Source of the DNA: a virus
Taxonomy: Duplodnaviria > Caudoviricetes
DNA: 64,000 nucleotides
IMG/VR virus record: IMGVR_UViG_3300005077_000001
Location: 1 to 64,000 of that record
Direction: 5' to 3' (one strand)
Positions within the stretch are counted from its first letter, which is position 1; each line of letters starts with the position of its first letter. The translations under genes and the position numbers were made by a program. This document shows, piece by piece, positions 1,912 through 23,670 of this stretch. The notes below the pieces were generated by a model. The model was not told the origin of the DNA. It ran no database searches and saw only the letters and a program-made list of their open reading frames with translations.

Positions 1912-2287
1912 AAATATACTCCTGAATGTTTGCTCTTGGGAAATTTAATTCATTAAATTTTCCCATACAATAGCATTCAAGTAGGATAATCTTTTTTAAT
2001 AATTTACCCTAAATTATCTTTTTATTGGGAAAGTGGGTACTTTCTATAAAAAGGATACCACACACAGTTGCGCGCGCTAGCATAAAACGCGCATAAAATT
2101 CACGTAAATCATTAAATATAATTAGACTAATCCCCTCTCAATATTAATAATATTATCGGCAGTTATAAACTGCCCTCTGTACCCCAATATATTTTAATGT
2201 TGATGGGGTATATAATTTTATATTTTAATGTGCATGGGGTTATCATCCGCTATTTGGCGGAACAACAAACCAAAAGGAGGTTTCTAT

Positions 2288-2869
2288 TTGTTAGTACCTG
2301 TTGTAATTGAAAAGACTTCTTCAGGGGAAAGATCTTATGATTTGTATTCCAGATTGCTCAAAGAACGAATTGTGTTCTTTGGATCTGATGTTAATCCTTA
2401 TTCAGCCAACGTAACAGTGGCTCAACTACTCTATCTGGAATCTGTTTCTCCTGAGTCGGATATCAATTTATATATCAATAGCCCTGGTGGAACTGTTACT
2501 GATGCTTTTGCAATTTATGATGCAATGAATTATATTAAATCAGATGTTGCAACCATTGCTTTAGGGCAAGCAGCATCAGCTGGAGCATTTCTTCTGTCAG
2601 CAGGAGCAAAAGGAAAGAGATTTGCTTTGCCTAATTCTAGGATTATGATTCACCAACCTAGTGGTGGAGCTGGAGGTCCAGCAACAGATATACAAATACA
2701 CGCTAAAGAAATATTGAGAATGAAAGCTACTCTAAATCAATTGTTTGCTGACCATACGGGCCAACCGTTGGAGAAAATTGAGGAAGATATGGAACGTGAT
2801 AAATTTCTTACTTCACAACAAGCTCTTGACTATGGAATCATAGACCACATTATATCCAGGCGCGCATAA
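2288..2869 (+). CDS. clpP: ATP-dependent Clp protease proteolytic subunit
   Basis: TTG start after GGAGG gives [28 protein letters not shown]; YINSPGG, AASAGA (Ser), IMIHQP (His), DMERD (Asp) intact. Confidence 0.97.
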
Positions 2870-2895: not shown

Positions 2896-3579
2896 ATGTA
2901 CCCTCTTACCCTTTTAGTAATGATGGGATGTATTATTATTACACACAGGAGGTTTAAATTGAAAAATAAATTTGTAATGGTAGTTCTACTATTGTGTTTG
3001 GCTACTCCTTGTCAAGCACTAAATACTGAGAATGCTGTATTATGTTTCTATGATAAAGTAGTAGCCAAAATAAACTGCTACTATCCTGGTCCAATTGCAA
3101 ATGAGTTGGCTAAATTTGCAATGATGAGACAACTACATGAAGATGGAAATAAACCACATGACTATTCTGTTCCTGGTTTGGGATGTGGTGAACCCATCAA
3201 ATCTATTGTTTATTCAACTCCAACCCTTCTACAGATTGGGAGGGTGGTTGATTCAGAAGGCATGTCGTTGTACAGTTTCAAAGGTGAATTAGCAAACACG
3301 CATGCTTGCTTGTTGATTGCTAAGTTCTTTGACTATCTTATCTGCAATTTTTTATCATTCAAACCAATTGATAAGTATAATTGGGAAAGAGCAAAAAAGA
3401 TTTCTGAATTGTTAGAAAAAGAGATGCAGTTGGAAAGATTGTATTCTTACTTAAACACATCCACTAAAATAATTCCCTTGATAAAAAGGGCAAACAGTAT
3501 GTATGGTCCAATGGGAAGTGAACTTAATCGGAGAGTCGATGAACTTCGGCCTCTGTTTGCAATACGCGGGTGTTTATAA
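2896..3579 (+). CDS. Hypothetical protein with predicted signal peptide (likely TTG start about 2959)
   Basis: 227-aa ORF; AGGAGG before TTG; hydrophobic N-terminus. Confidence 0.6.
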   Translation: MYPLTLLVMMGCIIITHRRFKLKNKFVMVVLLLCLATPCQALNTENAVLCFYDKVVAKINCYYPGPIANELAKFAMMRQLHEDGNKPHDYSVPGLGCGEPIKSIVYSTPTLLQIGRVVDSEGMSLYSFKGELANTHACLLIAKFFDYLICNFLSFKPIDKYNWERAKKISELLEKEMQLERLYSYLNTSTKIIPLIKRANSMYGPMGSELNRRVDELRPLFAIRGCL

Positions 3580-3635: not shown

Positions 3636-3899
3636 ATGAAAAGGTTATCTATCCTGAGTATTTGTATAGTAGTTTCCATTTTGGTTGCTGCTACTTTCTC
3701 TGTTGCTCGGGGACCGATTGACTACAATCCGTACAACGGCCGTCCCGATTACAACCCGAACAATCCTGGTGGTGGAGCAATATCGGTTGGTGAAGCTAAC
3801 CACTACTATCAGGAAGCCATTCGGGAATGTCAAAGTTTCTGTGCCAGAAATGCACGGAATGAAGTTCAATATCGGTGGTGTATTTCCGGCTGCCGATAG
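3636..3899 (+). CDS. Small secreted Cys-rich protein
   Basis: AAGGAG RBS; signal-like MKRLSILSICIVVSILVAATFSVA; C-terminal CxxxC...CxxxC. Confidence 0.6.
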   Translation: MKRLSILSICIVVSILVAATFSVARGPIDYNPYNGRPDYNPNNPGGGAISVGEANHYYQEAIRECQSFCARNARNEVQYRWCISGCR

Positions 3900-3937
3900 T
3901 TCAGAACGTACGTGCATAGGAATATGAACAATTTATA

Positions 3938-4580
3938 GCCCGAGTAGAAGCTCTCTTCTGGTAGAAAGGTGGTGAGATCATGAAGAGGTGGTAGACATCA
4001 ACAATACTAATGACATGAGCTACCGGCGATTAGTAATAGGGTAAGAGAAAAGGAAGTAGGAAAAAAGAGGCCATGAAAACACGAATAAATCAATTTCTTT
4101 TTCTATATAGCCCATCCCTCGGCAGCTAGGGGAATCATGGGGGAGGTGACAACCTGCAATCGAGTTCCGCAGGGGAATAGCTGGTAGCTGCCTTCCAATG
4201 GAAAGGCATACAATCTCCGGTATCCGGCTTAATTCCATCGAGGGAAACGAGCCAAGGGGGTAAACCTCTAAGGGTATATAAGCTCTTAATTTACCTGTCC
4301 TCTTCCAGCGGAGGGTTGCAGGATTAGTGACTAGTTACTTACCTTATGGCATCATTGCCACTTCCCAGGAGTAACTAGAGCTGGCTTATTGCAAACATCT
4401 TGTGACCTTCTAGAGTTTCGGGCTCGCCCAAGTTCGGGAAACGTAGAAGCTCAGCTTGATCAACTGGGTGGAGTTACCAAGGAATGCGGGCAGCTTCAGC
4501 GCAAATCACAAGATGATGGTACCATTTGCAATAAGAAAAATCTATCCGGGGAGGGTAAAACCTCCCCCACCCATTGAGGT
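3938..4580 (+). ncRNA. Candidate large structured ncRNA (about 430-640 nt), family unknown
   Basis: No credible ORF; perfect helices 4138-4147/4560-4569, 4385-4395/4525-4535, 4396-4405/4506-4515, 4331-4339/4370-4378, 4121-4128/4185-4192, 4153-4159/4316-4322. Confidence 0.7.
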
Positions 4581-4782
4581 ACAAAATGAAAAATAAAAAA
4601 GGGAAGAAGAAATTAGTACCAAGAAATATTCTTATTCCGAGTATGAGGTTACATTGCAAACCAGGGCCTCATAAGGATAAGAAAAAGCAAGCATCAAAGA
4701 AGGCTTGCCGATTTAAAATTAATATTCAAATATAAATACCTACCATCATGGTAGGAACAGTTAAGTGTCCAGGGGGTTATGG

Positions 4783-5046
4783 ATGCCGAATTTGATCGGT
4801 AATTTGGATCGAGTGGCGGTAGGAAGTTCAGAATATTGGGAGATTTTGGGACTCAGGGCTGTCTCCCTATGTACTGGGCTGGATGAGTTCTTGAAGGCAA
4901 GTGAATTACCATTAACTGTTCTCCACCAAGCAATTAAGGTAGCTGAACGAAAGAAAGGACCTTCCTCATCGACGATGAGGGGCCTGAAGTTCTTGATGGG
5001 ATTGAAAGAGAAAGAAGAATCCGATAATAAGTCGGAGGTGGCGTAA
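4783..5046 (+). CDS. Hypothetical protein
   Basis: ATG after AGGGGG; stop overlaps the next ATG. Confidence 0.6.
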   Translation: MPNLIGNLDRVAVGSSEYWEILGLRAVSLCTGLDEFLKASELPLTVLHQAIKVAERKKGPSSSTMRGLKFLMGLKEKEESDNKSEVA

Positions 5047-6099: not shown

Positions 6100-6175
6100 G
6101 GTTCCGTAGCTCAGTTGGTAGAGCACCCGGCTCATAACCGGATGGTCCTTGGTTCGAACCCAAGCGGAACCACCA
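6100..6175 (+). tRNA. tRNA with CAT anticodon, probably Ile2 (lysidine type), possibly elongator Met
   Basis: GGTTCCG/CGGAACC acceptor, CTCATAA loop, GTTCGAA T-loop, encoded CCA; G1-C72 excludes initiator. Confidence 0.9.
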
Positions 6176-6180
6176 ACTGC

Positions 6181-6255
6181 TCACCGATAGCTCAATGGTA
6201 GAGCAACGGGCTGTTAACTCGTGGGTTGTAGGTTCGAGTCCTACTCGGTGAGCCA
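6181..6255 (+). tRNA. tRNA-Asn(GTT)
   Basis: TCACCGA/TCGGTGA acceptor, CTGTTAA loop, G73, CCA. Confidence 0.95.
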
Positions 6256-6262
6256 ACCACGT

Positions 6263-6349
6263 GCCTGAGTGGTGGAATTGGTAGACACAAGGGACTTAAA
6301 ATCCCTTGGAGCTTGCTCCGTGACAGTTCGAGTCTGTCCTCAGGCACCA
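6263..6349 (+). tRNA. tRNA-Leu(TAA)
   Basis: GCCTGAG/CTCAGGC acceptor, CTTAAAA loop, long variable arm, CCA. Confidence 0.95.
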
Positions 6350-8180: not shown

Positions 8181-8735
8181 TTGATGAAAGATTACCATAT
8201 TACCAAAGTATACTTTCCTGGAGTTACTTTTTCATATGAAGTTTACGAAGATATCTTCATGAACGGAGAAGTTAGGCTATTCAAAAATAGAAAAGTCTTC
8301 GTTCATGAAATCCCAACCCAGCTTCTTCCTCCACCTTATTGCTTGACACCAGGAACTAAACATTGTTGGTTCCCTGTTGGCAGAGTAGTGTGGAACGTCA
8401 CTCATCCAGATGATATTGCAATGCCTTGGGAGCAGATACACCACGACACTGATAAGTTGAACAACTGTCCGTATAACCTTATCAAATTGCATAAGAATGA
8501 TCATAAAAAATTACATAAGCAAAGAAATCCGCCCACACTTTCATCCAAGATACCAAATGAACTTATAGATTTCATTGATGATAATATGTACAAAATGTGC
8601 AAAAGCTCAATACTACGTAAACTTAGGGAACTGTTTCCTGACAGTTATCCATCTCGTTCTGCTTTCAAAAGGATATTCAGAAAAGTACGGCGTAAACGTT
8701 TAATTGATGAGTTTAAATTGGTGGTGAATCAATGA
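8181..8735 (+). CDS. HNH endonuclease (HNH_3-like)
   Basis: IHHDTDKLNNCPYNLIKLHKNDHKKLH. Confidence 0.75.
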   Translation: MMKDYHITKVYFPGVTFSYEVYEDIFMNGEVRLFKNRKVFVHEIPTQLLPPPYCLTPGTKHCWFPVGRVVWNVTHPDDIAMPWEQIHHDTDKLNNCPYNLIKLHKNDHKKLHKQRNPPTLSSKIPNELIDFIDDNMYKMCKSSILRKLRELFPDSYPSRSAFKRIFRKVRRKRLIDEFKLVVNQ

Positions 8736-9169
8736 TCTCAAAAAAGAAATACGAAAAGTTATTGATGGTATGGCTGAGATGTAGACGAGTGACGCGTGAT
8801 GGAAACATCTACATCAAATTCAAAAGACAGTTCTTCAAAGAATCCAGAGTGGTATATCAACTGCACCACCCTGATGAAGATATATCTGGATTTGATATTC
8901 ATCACAAGGATGTTAATCGTGCAAACAATCATCCTTCAAACCTACAGAAAATTAGCAATATAGATCACATTAAGTTGCACAACAAAGAGCAACTTATAAG
9001 TGCAGCAAGAAGACTTTCGAAGAATATTAAAAACCTGGTACTTAGGGAGCTGCTGGATGGAATTCCAGCAGGTATAATCACAAAAAGGTACAACGTCACA
9101 AGAACAGAGGTTACCTCTGTGTTGTTGTACCACAACAGAAACGTGCAGGAGGTTAGTCATGTTGGATGA
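8732..9169 (+). CDS. HNH endonuclease (HNH_3-like) with C-terminal HTH
   Basis: IHHKDVNRANNHPSNLQKISNIDHIKLH. Confidence 0.85.
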   Translation: MISKKKYEKLLMVWLRCRRVTRDGNIYIKFKRQFFKESRVVYQLHHPDEDISGFDIHHKDVNRANNHPSNLQKISNIDHIKLHNKEQLISAARRLSKNIKNLVLRELLDGIPAGIITKRYNVTRTEVTSVLLYHNRNVQEVSHVG

Positions 9170-10909: not shown

Positions 10910-10985
10910 GGGGTCATAACTCAGTTGGTAGAGTATCGCCCTTTTAAGGCGAGAGTCGAAGGTTCGAACCCTTCTGGCCCCACCA
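10910..10985 (+). tRNA. tRNA-Lys(TTT)
   Basis: GGGGTCA/TGGCCCC acceptor, CTTTTAA loop, CCA. Confidence 0.95.
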
Positions 10986-11009: not shown

Positions 11010-11355
11010 GGGGGCGAATTGGATTCGACGTGGGTAATTGAAGCTATTGTCTCGTGCAGGGTGTTGGACCCTATAACCAACAAAACCTCAAAAGAACTGA
11101 CGAAACTTTCGAGTACGCTGAAGCTGCGTAAGCTTCCACTCTTCTAATCTTTCCTACGGAGAGGAATGAGTGAGGTCAGTAGGATAGCTCGATCTCAGTG
11201 TCCAGAAGGGATTGGGTGAAATAGACAAGGACTGCATTCAAAGAAAGTGGTCGAGTCACGTTCTTTGGATAAAGACTAAACACTCGAATACGCACGTAAA
11301 AAGGACAATATGTGGAAGACTTGCGGACGTGGCTTCGACGCCACCGCCTCCACCA
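11010..11355 (+). ncRNA. ssrA: tmRNA; tag (A)DETFEYAEAA* at 11099-11131
   Basis: 5' GGGGGCG..GGATTCGAC; 3' T-arm GTGGC-TTCGAC-GCCAC and CGCCTCCACCA; G3:U70 Ala identity pair; tag ORF after AAGAACT ends AA-stop. Confidence 0.95.
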
Positions 11356-14687: not shown

Positions 14688-14894
14688 GCAATTACCGTTG
14701 TAGAGAAGACCACTCGGTCTTCTTTACATACGGGCACGTACATAAATGGGAGAGGAATGTATGCAGTTGTACAAGCCATAACGTACGACAATCTCATAAT
14801 AACCAATCCCTAGTGGATGTGGATGAAGAATAACTGCAAGTAATTGCGGTTTTCTTCAACGCATACATAATAAAATATATTTAAGGAATTATAG

Positions 14895-15245
14895 GGAAGA
14901 TTGACTGAATTAACAGGTGGCGTGCTTAATGGATTCGCCAGTACCATTAAGACGAAGGTATGAAGTAGAACCGGGCGACTACACTGGTCTAAACCTATAT
15001 ACCCACAATGCTGCACCTTTTGCCGCCCAGAAGGTGTAAGAGTCTTCCCAACTGGAATAGGGAGCTTTGAGGTGAAGCACCTGAAAGAATGGTAGCCCAA
15101 CGGTTTTGTCCACAACAAAGTGCGGGGCAGGAAAAGAAAGAAAAGTAGATTGTGGGCTCTACTTGCCTAGTCCTCCAACTCCTGAATTAAACTACCTAGG
15201 GGAGACTAGGAAACCTCACCACAAGAAAAGCTGCTTAGGCGGTTT
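14895..15245 (+). ncRNA. Candidate multi-pseudoknot ncRNA (about 340 nt) between a promoter motif and a hairpin
   Basis: Stems 14925-32/14944-51, 15014-19/15031-36, 15143-48/15159-64; loops complementary to 14918-22, 14973-77 and 15002-09 respectively. Confidence 0.7.
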
Positions 15246-15370
15246 TTCTTATACGCACACATCAGTTTTAAACAAAAAAGAAACCGCTATTGCCAATGCT
15301 TGATTGCTCACGGCATGGCGGTTTTCTTTCATATGTGTGTATTTAATTTAATGTACAATAGGAGGTAAAC

Positions 15371-15766
15371 ATGAATCCCTTATATCACGGCTCATTAAAG
15401 GCGTTAGATGTAGTTAAGCCTTTCCCTTCTAACTTAACAAACAACATACCTGTAGTCTTTGCTACTCCAATTTGGATTATTGCATTGATTATGGGTACAG
15501 GGTGGAAGGATAACAATATTAACTGTGGCTATGTGAACGGGGCTCTCACCGTAACAGAAGTCACAAAAGATGCGTTTGAAAGATTCTTTCATAGACAAAC
15601 GTATGTTTACACATTTGACTATGATGAGTCTTTATGGTACCACCACCATAACTTATGGGCATGTGAGTTTGTATCTTATCAAGAACAGATTCCTATTCAT
15701 ATTCAGACTGTAGAAGATCCATTTGTGCATATACAAGAACATGCACATTTGGTATACTACAAATAG
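15371..15766 (+). CDS. Hypothetical cassette protein
   Basis: GGAGG RBS; 131 aa. Confidence 0.7.
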   Translation: MNPLYHGSLKALDVVKPFPSNLTNNIPVVFATPIWIIALIMGTGWKDNNINCGYVNGALTVTEVTKDAFERFFHRQTYVYTFDYDESLWYHHHNLWACEFVSYQEQIPIHIQTVEDPFVHIQEHAHLVYYK

Positions 15767-15849
15767 GAAGCTGCGGCTTCCTTTATACACGTACATGTAA
15801 TTATTTATATATATAATGTACAATAGAATAAAAAAGAAAGGAGAATAGT

Positions 15850-16059
15850 ATGATAACCAGAGTGGGAGAACTCCCCACGTATGACCCCTTGACAGGGGAG
15901 CGTCTGTATCTTTCTATCCATTCAGACGGGAGCGTCATCATTGAGTGGGTAGATAAGGATGGCGAAGTCACATTCGCCAAACTGATAAAAACCATGGACG
16001 AGCTGCATAAGGCAATTCGTGCTTTTGGTTTCAACCCTCCTCCACGAAAGGAGAGATGA
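15850..16059 (+). CDS. Hypothetical cassette protein
   Basis: AAGGAG RBS. Confidence 0.6.
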   Translation: MITRVGELPTYDPLTGERLYLSIHSDGSVIIEWVDKDGEVTFAKLIKTMDELHKAIRAFGFNPPPRKER

Positions 16060-16265
16060 ATGCACTGGATAAAGTTCCAGGCAACGAATTTCGAGATACG
16101 AGAGTTCTTGGGAACATGTTGCCCCGAACTTTACAGCTCGGAGATGTCAGTGTTCCTAAGAAAGGGCAAGAGAGGCCAGTCCCCTACTCTCCTTCTCGAC
16201 GGTGGATCAAAGCTGACTGCCAAGGGTGGCGGTTGGTACAGGATCAGCACATACAGTGCGTTTGA
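16056..16265 (+). CDS. Hypothetical protein
   Basis: AAGGAG RBS; ATGA overlap with the upstream gene. Confidence 0.5.
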   Translation: MNALDKVPGNEFRDTRVLGNMLPRTLQLGDVSVPKKGQERPVPYSPSRRWIKADCQGWRLVQDQHIQCV

Positions 16266-16530
16266 GAATGACATTCCTTTCTGCATTCCGGGTAAAATAG
16301 GAAGTGCGTCATTCTAGTTAATGAAGAAACTGCAAGCAATTGCGGTTTCTCTCAACCGATTCATATACCGATATATTCCGATATGTGTATGCATACGCAT
16401 GGGAATAAAGATTTAACTATCTGTATTTATTGATAAACCGACTTCCCCGCCCCCAAATAAAAAAGGTTATCGTGTGTAGTATATATCTAATGTTATATAG
16501 TATTAACATAGAAACAAGAAAGGAGAAGTC

Positions 16531-19126: not shown

Positions 19127-19310
19127 TGGGTTATCTTTGACGGGCTGAGTGGGGGATAACGGCGACGTCTTTATTGCCTTGCCCTTCCTCGTTTGCCGGG
19201 CCGCTTAGATAACCCACGGAAAAAGGAGGCAAGCCAAAACTGGGTATAAGGCCACGAGTCTCCTGCGAGTTTATCCTGTTCTCGCTTTATGCTCTAATAA
19301 CAGGGACCCA
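19127..19310 (+). ncRNA. Candidate pseudoknotted ncRNA
   Basis: TGGGTTATCT/AGATAACCCA helix starts at the promoter motif; GCGAG/CTCGC loop CCTGTT is complementary to AACAGG 19299-19304. Confidence 0.6.
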
Positions 19311-19457
19311 AAGAAATCAATAAAAAAAAGTTTGAGTGGGATGAACAATGGAGAAATCGCTGAGCACATTAGCGGTTTTTTCATACACGCGTATAATAAT
19401 ATATTTAATGTTGTATAGAGATGTGTTAGCATCTTAATGAAGAAAGGAGGAAATCAC

Positions 19458-19739
19458 ATGTCTGATTTCTTCGTTCAAAAGATGTTTGCCTTGGCAGAGG
19501 CCGAGGCCAAGCGGCAGGGCAAGGAAGAGTTCGCAAAAGAACTCATGCAGGGGCTGATGCAGGGGTTGCAGATGATTGCCCCCATCATCGGTTCCATGAT
19601 TCAGGCCGACAGTCAGCCCAACACTTACGCCATCAAAGAGGAAATCCGGCGTGAGTTTCAGTCCGAGATGGACAAACGCGAAGACCGGCTGCATAAGAAG
19701 CTGGAAGAAATTGTCAAGGCAATCAAGCCCGGAATCTAG
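19458..19739 (+). CDS. Hypothetical coiled-coil protein, GC-rich codon usage
   Basis: AAGGAGG RBS; 93 aa. Confidence 0.75.
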   Translation: MSDFFVQKMFALAEAEAKRQGKEEFAKELMQGLMQGLQMIAPIIGSMIQADSQPNTYAIKEEIRREFQSEMDKREDRLHKKLEEIVKAIKPGI

Positions 19740-20081
19740 CCTCGACGCCCCGTGGTCTTCATTCAATTAGCCGCTTGTTCCCCTCCCAAGCGGTTTTCTT
19801 TTATACGTACATATATGGGAATTTATTTTTATATATTTAATGTTGTATAGGATTAGGGGTTATAAGGAAAAGGGAGGGCAGTCATGGTTGAAATCAAAGT
19901 GAATGGCGTGATTTATCGCATCGTAAGGCGATAGACTGCCAATGCATATCGGCACTAAGAGCCAAAAAATAGTTATTGAAACCGTGCTTTAGCGGTTTCT
20001 TTATTCACGTGTATGTATTTATATATTTAACGTATTATAGGGATGGATTTATTCATCTCAATCTTTGATGGAGGTTGGGCA

Positions 20082-20192: not shown

Positions 20193-20443
20193 CCGCCTAG
20201 CGGCTTTTTTACTTTGCACGTTTATTTATATATTTATGGATTTATAGGAGTTAGAAGCTCCAAAAAGTGATGCTGCTAATATCCTGTGGGGTGTTAGCAG
20301 TTTTTTTGTTTATGTTTATATTTATGGGTTTATAGAAATGGTAAAGGCACTCACAAAAATAAGCGGTATTAATTAAATAATAATAATATATAAGGTATAA
20401 TAGGCTACAGTGGTAGTTTCTCATCTCTCTACGGAGGTGTACC

Positions 20444-20590
20444 ATGGATCGTCCTTGGTATATCAGTCTTCTCATCTCCCTCGGAGTAGCCCTCGGCGGA
20501 GGGTTGATCGGATACTTGGCCCACAGCCTGTTTCCTTGGCACAGGGGATGGAGCCGGAACAACAAAGGCTCCATCCATTCCCAGAAGTAG
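20444..20590 (+). CDS. Small membrane peptide (48 aa)
   Basis: GGAGGT RBS; MDRPWYISLLISLGVALGGGLIGYLAHSLF...; GC hairpin downstream. Confidence 0.65.
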   Translation: MDRPWYISLLISLGVALGGGLIGYLAHSLFPWHRGWSRNNKGSIHSQK

Positions 20591-20804
20591 TCTGTCGCCC
20601 AGGCCGAAAGGAAGCCCGCCCCGAAGGGCGGCTTTCTTAACCCCCTGGCCCTATACCCTTTCCAGAACGGTTTTTTATAGGAAAAGGAGCCTCCTGGTTG
20701 GTACACGCTCTCCAGCCCCTAAATAACGATAGGATAGTATTCACATATTTACACACATCTACATCTACATACCATAATTTATTTATTCTTCTCCATACAC
20801 GTAC

Positions 20805-20830
20805 ATAAAAAAACCTCCCGTAGGAGGTTG
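20805..20830 (-). terminator. Terminator at the convergence of the + and - blocks
   Basis: AACCTCC-CGTA-GGAGGTT with an upstream A-run (U-tail on the minus strand). Confidence 0.75.
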
Positions 20831-23670
20831 TTACTCAAAATTTGTCAGGGGTGTATTAAAAGGTTAACGATAGCATTAACTACGTAATATTTTACCTATA
20901 TTGATAACTGCATCTAAAATTTCCAATGCTCTTGTGTATTCATCCATATCTTCATGAATAACACTTTGTACAAATAAATGTTTAACCTTTTCTAAACCTA
21001 AAGCCATTTCATATGTTGCTTGGTATTCTAATAGAAAGTTATCTCTAAACTCTTGTGATGCATTTTTCATTTAGTTCTTTCTCCTTTTTACGCAACTCTG
21101 CTATTTGTTTTAAGTCTTTTCGTATTTTTATATTATCTATTCGCAGGTCTATTATTAATTGTATTAATCCAATAATACATACAATTAAAGCAGTAATCAT
21201 TAATATTTGTGTAGCGTAGCCTATATATTCTATAATCATTATACTTCTTCTCCTATTTCATATATTTTTGGAAATTCATCTGGATAATCTTTTATATGTT
21301 TTCCATCATGCATGTAACTATCCATTGGACGTTCTCCTTATAGACAATGTAATGGTATAACCCTCACCAATTATGAGGGCGGGGAAGGCGGCTTAACTAA
21401 ATTAAATATCTATATTTACTGGAAGGCGTGATTAATACTTCATCGTAGTCTAGTAATAGTGTATTTAGATGTTCCAAGTCTTCTAGTTGTTTTTGTTTTT
21501 GTTTAATTAGTTGGTATCTGTTATAAATGTTTTTTATTTTACGAACAGTATCTGGATGAAGCCATGTGTAAGCTACCCAATATGCAGAGTGATGTGCAAT
21601 ATAATCAATACCATGAATCCACGCATCATGAATTAATTTATTAAATTCTCGATTGTTTTTACATTTATATGACTCTGAACACCAACAATTAAAATAAGAG
21701 GGATCTCTATAAAGAGTCTCTCCGAACTCTTGTTCTAATTTTTGTATTGAATACTCGTAAGCGTCTTTGAGTCCTTCTTGGTCAGCATAATGGTTGGATT
21801 TGTTGCGTAATTCATAATATACCTTTGTGTCCATAATTAACCCCTCCTGTAAAAAAACCTTTTTAATATAGCAAAATCGTTAGTTAAAATTTTTTGGGGG
21901 TGGAGTGGTCAAAATTTGCTTAATTTTTATAAACTCTTCTTCTCTTTCTTTTTTTAATTGTTTTTCATCTTGGTAACCTTCTAGTAAAATATAAAATATG
22001 GAAAACCACATTACAGCTACAAATGAAATTATAATAATTTTAAAAATTAATATGATTACCGTCATCCCAACCACCCATCATCTGTTGGTGTAGGGTATGT
22101 ATGTTTACAGTAAGGGCATGTAATCATAGTAGGAATAGGTTCATCTTTTTCAAATACCCAATTATCCAGTTAAATTCTTTCCATTGGTTTTTTTCTTGTT
22201 CAAACTTTTCCATTTTTCAATGTCCTCTTTTGTGTATTCTATTATTCCTTTCTCACCTGAAAATTCTGCAATTGAGTGTTCAGTTCTATAAGGATACCAT
22301 TGGTAACTACCCCATATTCTTGCCTTATCTAAATCTGGATAATAATTTAAATAAATTATAGAATGGTCTTCGTTTACTAGTTCAAACCTTCTCATTTACT
22401 CCTCCACATATTTTTTTAATTGTTTTATTACTCTATCAATCCCGTTACTAACGCCCCAACTCCATTGGTCATCAATACCACTATCCCACGTTTGATTATA
22501 TTTTTCTTTCTTTGCCCATTCTTTTATTTTTTCAAATTCTTTTTTTGTCATGTTAATCCATCATGTATCGTTCGGTAGCTGAGGCTTCCCAAGGCACACA
22601 AGCCGGGACATAAAAACAACCATAATGCCATATACATATTACCAATAAAAGAAATCCACTAGCAATACCAATACTCCACACTTGCGATGCTATACTCAGG
22701 TATAGAAAGAAAAATAAGAAACCACATAATATAAACTTGAACAATTTCAAAATAATCCACCAGTCTTTATATTTGTAGGAAGAGAATCGCTCCCATAGTG
22801 GAACACTGCCCCCACTACGATAATCTGCTTTACACCAGGGTTTATAATAACGACATTTTTCACATACTTCTATGCTTGGTAGCATCCTTTTATTCCTTTT
22901 GATTTAATTTAGTTAATTATTTAAATACGGTGGTCTGGTTTTGTAATTGCACTACTATTTTTTTTAAACGATTTACTTCCGCTATTAATTCATTTATTTT
23001 TCTTATTGTTGTTAAATCTGTATTGGTGTACTCAGAGAGAGATTCTATTTCTTTCATCTAAGGAACTCACGCAGTTCGTTTTCTATTTCTAAATTATAAT
23101 TATAACTACGTGCTAAGTTTTTTAGTAGTTTTCCAATAGTTCTCACTGCCTCTTCTGCATCGTTTGAAAAAGAAGTCATTGTAATATTACCATTACGGTG
23201 AACTCCATATACCTTTGGATATTTTAAACAATACTTATAAATTTTACGCTTTACTGTATCTATTTGCTGTTGTTTACGTACTGGATTAGTTTCGTTAAAC
23301 TTGAAGTTCCATGATATTTTTCCTACAAATTCAGCCATTTGATTCTCCTTTCCTTATTTCGTCATTAGGGCCTAAATAAACATGCGGATCTCGTGCTCTT
23401 ACTTTCTTCACTGTTGTGGATTTACCACAATTACTGCAAGTATAAGTATAATAATTAGTTGAACCTGCTAATAAAGTTGACATACAACCAGATTCCCATT
23501 CATCACTACTACAATGCGGGCAGATTAAAATATTAGGGGGCGGGCCATTTAGCTTATCTATTACTTCATTTAATTTATCTATTACTTCATTTGTCTTTAC
23601 TACTACATAACCTATTTCTACAGCCCCTGATAAGTGTTTCATATTAGCTAGTCTTTCTATTGTATTATTT

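Follow-up and report, generated by a model that had tools for sequence, protein, structure and literature searches.

The window analysed here is the first 64 kb (64,000 nucleotides) of a 256,335-bp IMG/VR virus record that CheckV rates as 97% complete. It belongs to an uncultivated jumbo phage that is effectively a singleton; its large terminase is related to that of only two IMG/VR contigs, at 51% identity. The early neighbourhood of the candidate RNA, in which all listed genes lie on the plus strand, is laid out in Table 1. Two open reading frames of 227 and 87 aa precede an ORF-free stretch, which is followed by the gene of a small basic protein and a series of small ORFs. No relatives of the proteins flanking this stretch (227 aa and 152 aa) were found in IMG/VR, nor any of the 227-aa protein in the JGI contigs. 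A cluster of three tRNA genes lies 1.5 kb downstream of the structured core of the stretch and on the same strand, a setting near tRNA genes such as an initial annotation of this DNA gives for large phage ncRNAs. A fourth tRNA gene and a full tmRNA gene are found further downstream. Each of the four tRNA genes in the window encodes its 3' CCA, as does the tmRNA gene, and no CCA-adding enzyme is detectable in the genome of the phage; the related phage G002 encodes one.

Table 1. Features of the early region of the phage, in window coordinates; the parts of the RNA are those of its predicted fold.
Feature	Position	Strand	Details
ClpP gene	2228-2869	+	
227-aa ORF, then 87-aa ORF	87-aa ORF ends at 3899	+	5' of the ORF-free stretch
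Promoter-like motif	3907-3938	+	alternating purine/pyrimidine tract, then AATATG...ATTTATAG
5' leader	3939-4137	+	purine-rich; no significant structure; only micro-ORFs with poor ribosome-binding sites
P1, 5' strand UGGGGGAGGU	4138-4147	+	perfect 10-bp complement of 4560-4569; mean pair probability 0.99
Domain A	4153-4322	+	9+6-bp closing helix, multi-branched interior; main-helix probabilities 0.83-0.98
Domain A hairpins	4189-4208, 4226-4253, 4258-4296	+	
Domain B, long hairpin	4324-4384	+	probabilities 0.80-0.96
Domain C	4385-4535	+	11+10-bp coaxial basal helix (21-bp rod), two inner hairpin arms; probabilities 0.97-0.98
9-nt bulge AUGGUACCA	4516-4524	+	interrupts the domain C rod; contains the 8-nt palindrome UGGUACCA
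Small hairpin	4543-4557	+	3' half GGGGAGGGU (4549-57) is an alternative partner of the P1 3' strand
P1, 3' strand ACCUCCCCCA	4560-4569	+	anti-SD-like; then C, then CCA up to 4573
SD GAGGU and gene of the 49-aa very basic protein	4577-4735	+	ATG at 4586
49-aa basic protein gene	4586-4735	+	small ORFs come after
tRNA-Met, tRNA-Asn, tRNA-Leu cluster	6100-6349	+	Rfam and ARAGORN
tRNA-Lys gene	10910-10985		
tmRNA gene, full	11010-11355		

In a collection of 5.8 billion protein clusters the best relatives of the phage ClpP are cellular ClpPs of mixed phyla (66-68% identity), and its own cluster has one member, from one contig. The cellular nature of the nearest ClpPs, together with the gene not being present in G002, points to a lineage-specific acquisition.

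The ORF-free stretch lacks coding capacity, as had been proposed: no ORF of at least 60 aa with a plausible start was found under table 11, table 4 or a code with TAG=Q. Neither tblastx against G002 nor tblastn with its CCA-adding enzyme recovered a pseudogene remnant of a G002 gene, and the exact translations of six ORFs (five from the RNA region and the 49-aa protein) were found in none of six cases in a collection of 15 billion proteins. The ORF lists in three codes and the lack of a G002 remnant rule out a hidden gene and a decayed copy of a G002 gene.

Known RNA families do not account for the element. The check by cmscan that the initial annotation had suggested, run on the whole window at gathering thresholds, matched only the tmRNA and the four tRNAs, and a sensitive Rfam 15 scan of 3700-4900 at E ≤ 10 returned only two spurious short matches. 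GOLLD, ROOL, OLE, raiA and other large Rfam ncRNAs are thereby excluded at the sensitivity of the family models. The element has no Rfam match at E ≤ 10 as a tmRNA, 6S RNA or SRP RNA, and the earlier finding of no RNase P, group I or group II core holds even at this permissive threshold. No split gene flanks the element. It is single-copy in the genome, is without a target-site duplication around 4138-4569 (the flanks are AATCA on the left and CCCAT on the right), and no direct repeats or iterons were found in it.

The region is rich in long perfect inverted repeats. All seven helix pairs listed in the initial annotation proved to be perfect reverse complements, to the exact nucleotide. Between 4100 and 4580, three perfect inverted repeats reach 10 bp or more, where 500 dinucleotide shuffles average 0.1, and four reach 9 bp or more, where 0.41 are expected; not one of the 500 shuffles reached the observed count at either length. 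For inverted repeats of at least 8 bp the count was five, with 1.6 expected. The pairings of 7-8 bp among the seven (3937-43/4418-24, 4121-28/4185-92 and 4153-59/4316-22) are likewise exact, but individually they are at chance level. Long perfect helices are as compatible with repeats that are young or act at the DNA level as with RNA, and they are less typical of ornate RNAs that are old and conserved.

The excess of helices is accompanied by a stable predicted fold. On the plus strand the core at 4138-4569 has a minimum free energy (MFE) of −164.1 compared with −131.8 ± 5.9 for shuffled sequences (z −5.46), and the slightly longer segment 4105-4575 yields a z of −3.67 in the folding tool's own fold. 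Among 70 random plus-strand windows of the genome the mean z is −0.61 (sd 1.8), and just two of them, both at 15.2-16 kb, fold as well as the core. The upstream segment 3930-4110 has a plus-strand z of −0.08. Because this segment is without significant structure, the structured unit measures about 430 nt rather than 640: the lower end of the extent first proposed (about 430-640 nt) is borne out, and the upper end, which takes in 200 unstructured nucleotides at the 5' side, is not. These exact-boundary shuffles replaced a GC-regressed sliding-window scan that did not flag the locus, since its fixed windows cut P1 and other RNA-rich GC islands dominate the regression.

The base composition of the core is also unusual for this phage. 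Its GC content of 0.491, against 0.332 ± 0.044 in the genome, places it in the top 0.09% of windows, and in this it resembles the nearby tRNA and tmRNA genes. The other GC islands are few, comprising the tRNA cluster, the tmRNA region, several stretches at 14-21 kb and a protein-coding stretch near 88 kb; nearly all GC islands of the genome fall in the early region at 4-21 kb. Overall, the original observation of exact helices, a significant fold and no ORF was sound. Of its interpretation, a noncoding and structured element that favours the plus strand and belongs to no Rfam family stands, and the 640-nt extent does not.

The domain calls rest on the MFE fold and the ensemble pair probabilities of a single sequence. 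They describe one nested, closed architecture with pair probabilities of 0.8-0.99 in the main helices, in which the 10-bp terminal helix P1 is predicted to surround three domains separated by short junction strands (GACAA, A and none). P1 can be extended by GGG 4130-32/CCC 4570-72, and its 5' strand UGGGGGAGGU is SD-like in sequence. Domain B is built from a 5-bp base, a 10-bp helix (4331-40/4369-78), an apical 5-bp stem and a UCAU loop. The bulge AUGGUACCA in the domain C rod is predicted to be exposed, with a probability of being unpaired of 0.91, and apart from its palindrome UGGUACCA the fold has no loop-loop complement of 6 nt or more; by our estimate about 0.035 such palindromes are expected in sufficiently long loops. 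The exposed palindrome is a possible site of self-association in this model.

Some segments have mutually exclusive partners, as had been remarked before. The 3' strand of P1, ACCUCCCCCA at 4560-69, pairs either with 4138-47 or with GGGGAGGGU at 4549-57, and a part of it can pair over 5 bp with the downstream SD GAGGU at 4577-81. The nucleotides that follow P1 invite a comparison with the stable RNAs of phage tRNA operons and with tmRNA, which have paired ends and are processed from precursors. In the present element too a terminal helix joins the 5' and 3' ends, with C-CCA directly after it, and the element is probably co-transcribed with tRNA genes. Neither ARAGORN nor Rfam detects a T-arm or a tRNA-like domain in it. 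This CCA sits inside a C-rich run and is partly paired in the MFE fold; the parallel to the CCA ends of tRNAs and tmRNA is a lead only and may be chance.

How the element could be transcribed is suggested by a cassette that recurs in this phage, composed of a GCGGYTTT terminator hairpin, a purine/pyrimidine tract and the motif TATATATTTAAKGnnTTATAG. We aligned 3900-3940 with five cassette motifs (at 14856, 18874, 19382, 19818 and 20212). The motif at 3907-3938 has the ATAT and TATAG blocks in common with them, with a spacer 3 nt shorter and with fewer matches. The promoter-like context noted in the initial annotation thus does resemble the cassette promoter motif but is a weak variant of it, and a promoter at this place is plausible but weak. 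Co-transcription of the RNA with the small basic protein gene is likely, because the first terminator-like site downstream of the RNA on the plus strand is a weak one, at 5040. No strong terminator separates the RNA from the tRNA cluster, which is perhaps co-transcribed as well.

The SD of the small basic protein gene lies 7 nt after P1. The 49-aa protein has a homologue of 45% identity in G002 (L095:7347-7508), and an exhaustive profile search recovered a family of 71 representatives at E ≤ 1e-3. Its members are very basic, about 45-60 aa long, and share the motif PRNxLVPxMRLHCKPGxHxDKKKEAxRKACR; three of them match DUF7230 weakly. Judging from these homologues the gene is real and conserved. 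An AlphaFold model of the 49-aa protein shows two short helices at low confidence (pLDDT 67). The family may consist of RNA- or ribosome-binding factors. In G002 the family member is preceded by the gene of the CCA-adding enzyme. The same order occurs in an unrelated 44-kb JGI contig, where a MYG1-type exonuclease is present too, and other members come after an AAA ATPase or DNA ligase gene. No structured RNA was found 5' of the homologues: the upstream DNA available is coding or not significantly structured. By this comparison no conserved partnership links the RNA to the small basic protein gene, which weakens both a dedicated ribonucleoprotein and a dedicated leader as models.

Relatives of the RNA itself were sought at several levels, and none was found. 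BLAST and nhmmer against the related phages G001 and G002 and against 80 ClpP loci returned nothing, and a covariance model of domain C (R1, 4385-4535) had no homologue in G000, G001, G002 or L104-L107. Neither of the two contigs matched by the large terminase carries the RNA according to BLAST, nhmmer or this covariance model. The RNA is not present at the equivalent place in G002. A blastn search of phage GenBank records gave no homologue, and four motif scans of contigs from viruses, metagenomes and genomes, one of them coded as purine/pyrimidine and three exact, gave nothing; in all, no homologue is found in IMG/VR, the JGI metagenome contigs, GTDB genomes or elsewhere in the phage's own genome. 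Weak BLAST matches at 87.6-88.9 kb of the same genome were rejected as chance, since they lie inside coding sequence and on mixed strands.

The relative G002 does carry an ORF-free island of a comparable kind. It spans 154192-154605 (L094:14192-14605) on the minus strand, is about 414 nt long, in a size class of about 410-470 nt similar to that of the present RNA, has a GC content of 0.48 and folds with a z of −5.1, including a 27-bp perfect hairpin, and it has no Rfam match. The island lies in, and on the strand of, a gene block with homologues of the window genes at 2896-3579 and 8181-9169. In its size, elevated GC, strong z, long perfect helices and lack of an Rfam match it is like the present RNA, whereas it is not alignable with it and occupies another position within the gene block. 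The 9-bit match of model R1 to the island is a generic long-helix match, with an E of 0.047 for 1 kb that is not significant genome-wide. The island may be an analogous large RNA, and the lineage may be characterised by large structured islands of this sort; the parallel is no evidence that the two are homologous.

Other stretches of the phage's own genome are structured as well. One is the AT-rich intergenic segment 1912-2227 (GC 0.29), flanked by divergent genes and located at the minimum of the cumulative GC skew. Its predicted folds are extremely stable for both strands (z −7.9 and −4.75), and it may serve as an origin or as a region of divergent promoters. In the cassette region, further windows at 15200-16400, 19300-19980 and 20260-20910 have fold z-scores of −5 to −7 and form GC islands of up to 0.50.

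We tentatively favour a reading in which 4138-4569 (+) is a genuine structured RNA, a stable, end-protected species that would act in trans; given what the fold and the comparisons offer, we regard this as possible rather than probable. It is in keeping with the plus-strand z-score, the excess of perfect helices, the nested fold, the GC island and the absence of an ORF, as well as with the cassette-type motif upstream, the tRNA cluster with no strong terminator in between, a setting like that of GOLLD and ROOL, and the structured island of G002. It has to be set against the lack of any homologue in our searches, the structure that the minus strand also shows, the missing terminator after the RNA, and the absence of the RNA from G002 and from other carriers of the gene for the small protein. 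The RNA is at this stage a candidate for a new class, unproven and known from a single sequence.

A doubtful, though not negligible, alternative is that the element acts in cis on the small basic protein mRNA, either as its leader (5' UTR) or in its processing. UGGGGGAGGU at 4138-47, GGGGAGGGU at 4549-57, ACCUCCCCCA at 4560-69 and the SD at 4577-81 would then compete for pairing and set translation or stability, or the 21-bp helix of domain C could be an RNase III-type site, for which it is long enough. The position of the SD 7 nt past P1, with no terminator between the RNA and the gene, would fit a role in cis equally well, and the competing pairings open to the C-rich strand, which exclude one another, are evident from the sequence itself. 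An anti-SD-like strand beside the SD, with alternative partners, is what SD/anti-SD leaders have too. In addition, the bulge contains GUACC, complementary to a GGUAC that overlaps the SD, and the downstream gene is real and conserved. The predicted fold, however, leaves the SD free both in the MFE structure and in the ensemble (4573-4585 is 93% unpaired), the 5-bp pairing with the SD is much weaker than P1, and the homologues of the small protein are without such a leader in all five of the other contexts examined. Leaders of this kind and RNase III processing hairpins are also several times smaller than the present RNA, and no ligand or factor is implied here. Known translational switches are far smaller than a 430-nt element with three elaborate domains.

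It is on the unlikely side that the element has no specific function and is a lineage-specific noncoding spacer in a structure-rich, GC-enriched early region, with a stability that reflects local repeat accumulation or general mRNA-stabilising structure. The element is a singleton with no detectable conservation, as such a spacer would be, and other ORF-free stretches of the genome are strongly structured (1912-2227, z −7.9; 15.2-16 kb, z −5 to −7), so that high structure is not unique to this locus. Both the z-score and the perfect-helix excess nevertheless lie above all shuffles, and in the compact genome of a phage 430 nt of GC-rich, nested and P1-closed structure is unlikely to be neutral.

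It is very unlikely that the element works at the level of DNA, either through inverted repeats in double- or single-stranded DNA that mark an origin or give a signal for recombination or packaging, or as a MITE-like insertion with the 10-bp terminal inverted repeat TGGGGGAGGT/ACCTCCCCCA at its ends. The minus strand of the core also folds significantly (z −2.79), because the main helices are perfect Watson-Crick repeats, and the unit of 432 bp is edged by a perfect 10-bp inverted repeat and missing from the equivalent place in G002. Against this, the plus strand gains about 25 kcal/mol from G-U pairs in the core, and a nested multi-domain layout is typical of RNA and not of cruciforms. The argument from strand is weakened by a general property of the genome, in which the plus strand folds better than the minus strand (mean −90.8 versus −79.5 kcal/mol). 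The element is in addition single-copy and has no iterons or direct repeats. A MITE-like mobile element was rejected for being single-copy and without a target-site duplication, despite the 10-bp terminal inverted repeat.

If the element is a structural RNA acting in trans, as we tentatively prefer, it would be transcribed early from the cassette-type promoter at about 3910-3938, in a longer transcript that would continue into the small basic protein gene and probably into the tRNA cluster. The RNA of about 430 nt would fold autonomously, with P1 joining both ends around domains A, B and C, and would persist as a stable, end-protected structural species. Acting in trans, it would then serve as a scaffold or decoy, much like other large phage RNAs beside tRNA genes, and may self-associate through the exposed palindrome UGGUACCA.

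GOLLD and ROOL offer the closest comparison. Recent work has shown that both assemble into cages made of RNA alone, of as yet unknown function, and few classes of this kind exist. They are encoded by phages or prophages, often near tRNA islands, and self-associate through kissing loops (bioRxiv 10.1101/2024.12.08.627333). The present RNA shares with them a phage origin, a length of several hundred nucleotides, a multi-domain and noncoding nature and a tRNA cluster nearby, and where they have kissing loops it has an exposed palindromic loop that could support self-association. It differs in its length of about 430 nt, compared with about 600-800 nt or more, and in matching neither Rfam model. 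The helices of GOLLD and ROOL are short and motif-rich, whereas those of the present RNA are long and perfect, and are known from one sequence without homologues.

A bolder form of the trans-acting reading, unlikely as matters stand, is that the element founds a new class of large structural RNAs in phages, a functional analogue of GOLLD or ROOL that would be matured from a precursor of the tRNA-operon type, to judge by its terminal helix and C-CCA end, with homo-oligomers formed through UGGUACCA. The small basic protein would possibly join these oligomers; the lineage also has tmRNA and ClpP.

For the present the locus is a well-defined and cleanly delimited candidate based on a single sequence rather than a finding, and the RNA is short enough for direct work in vitro. 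If real, it would be a further, unrelated example of a large structured phage RNA beside tRNA, tmRNA and ClpP genes, and would broaden the kind represented by GOLLD and ROOL and link it to modules of translation and RNA maturation.
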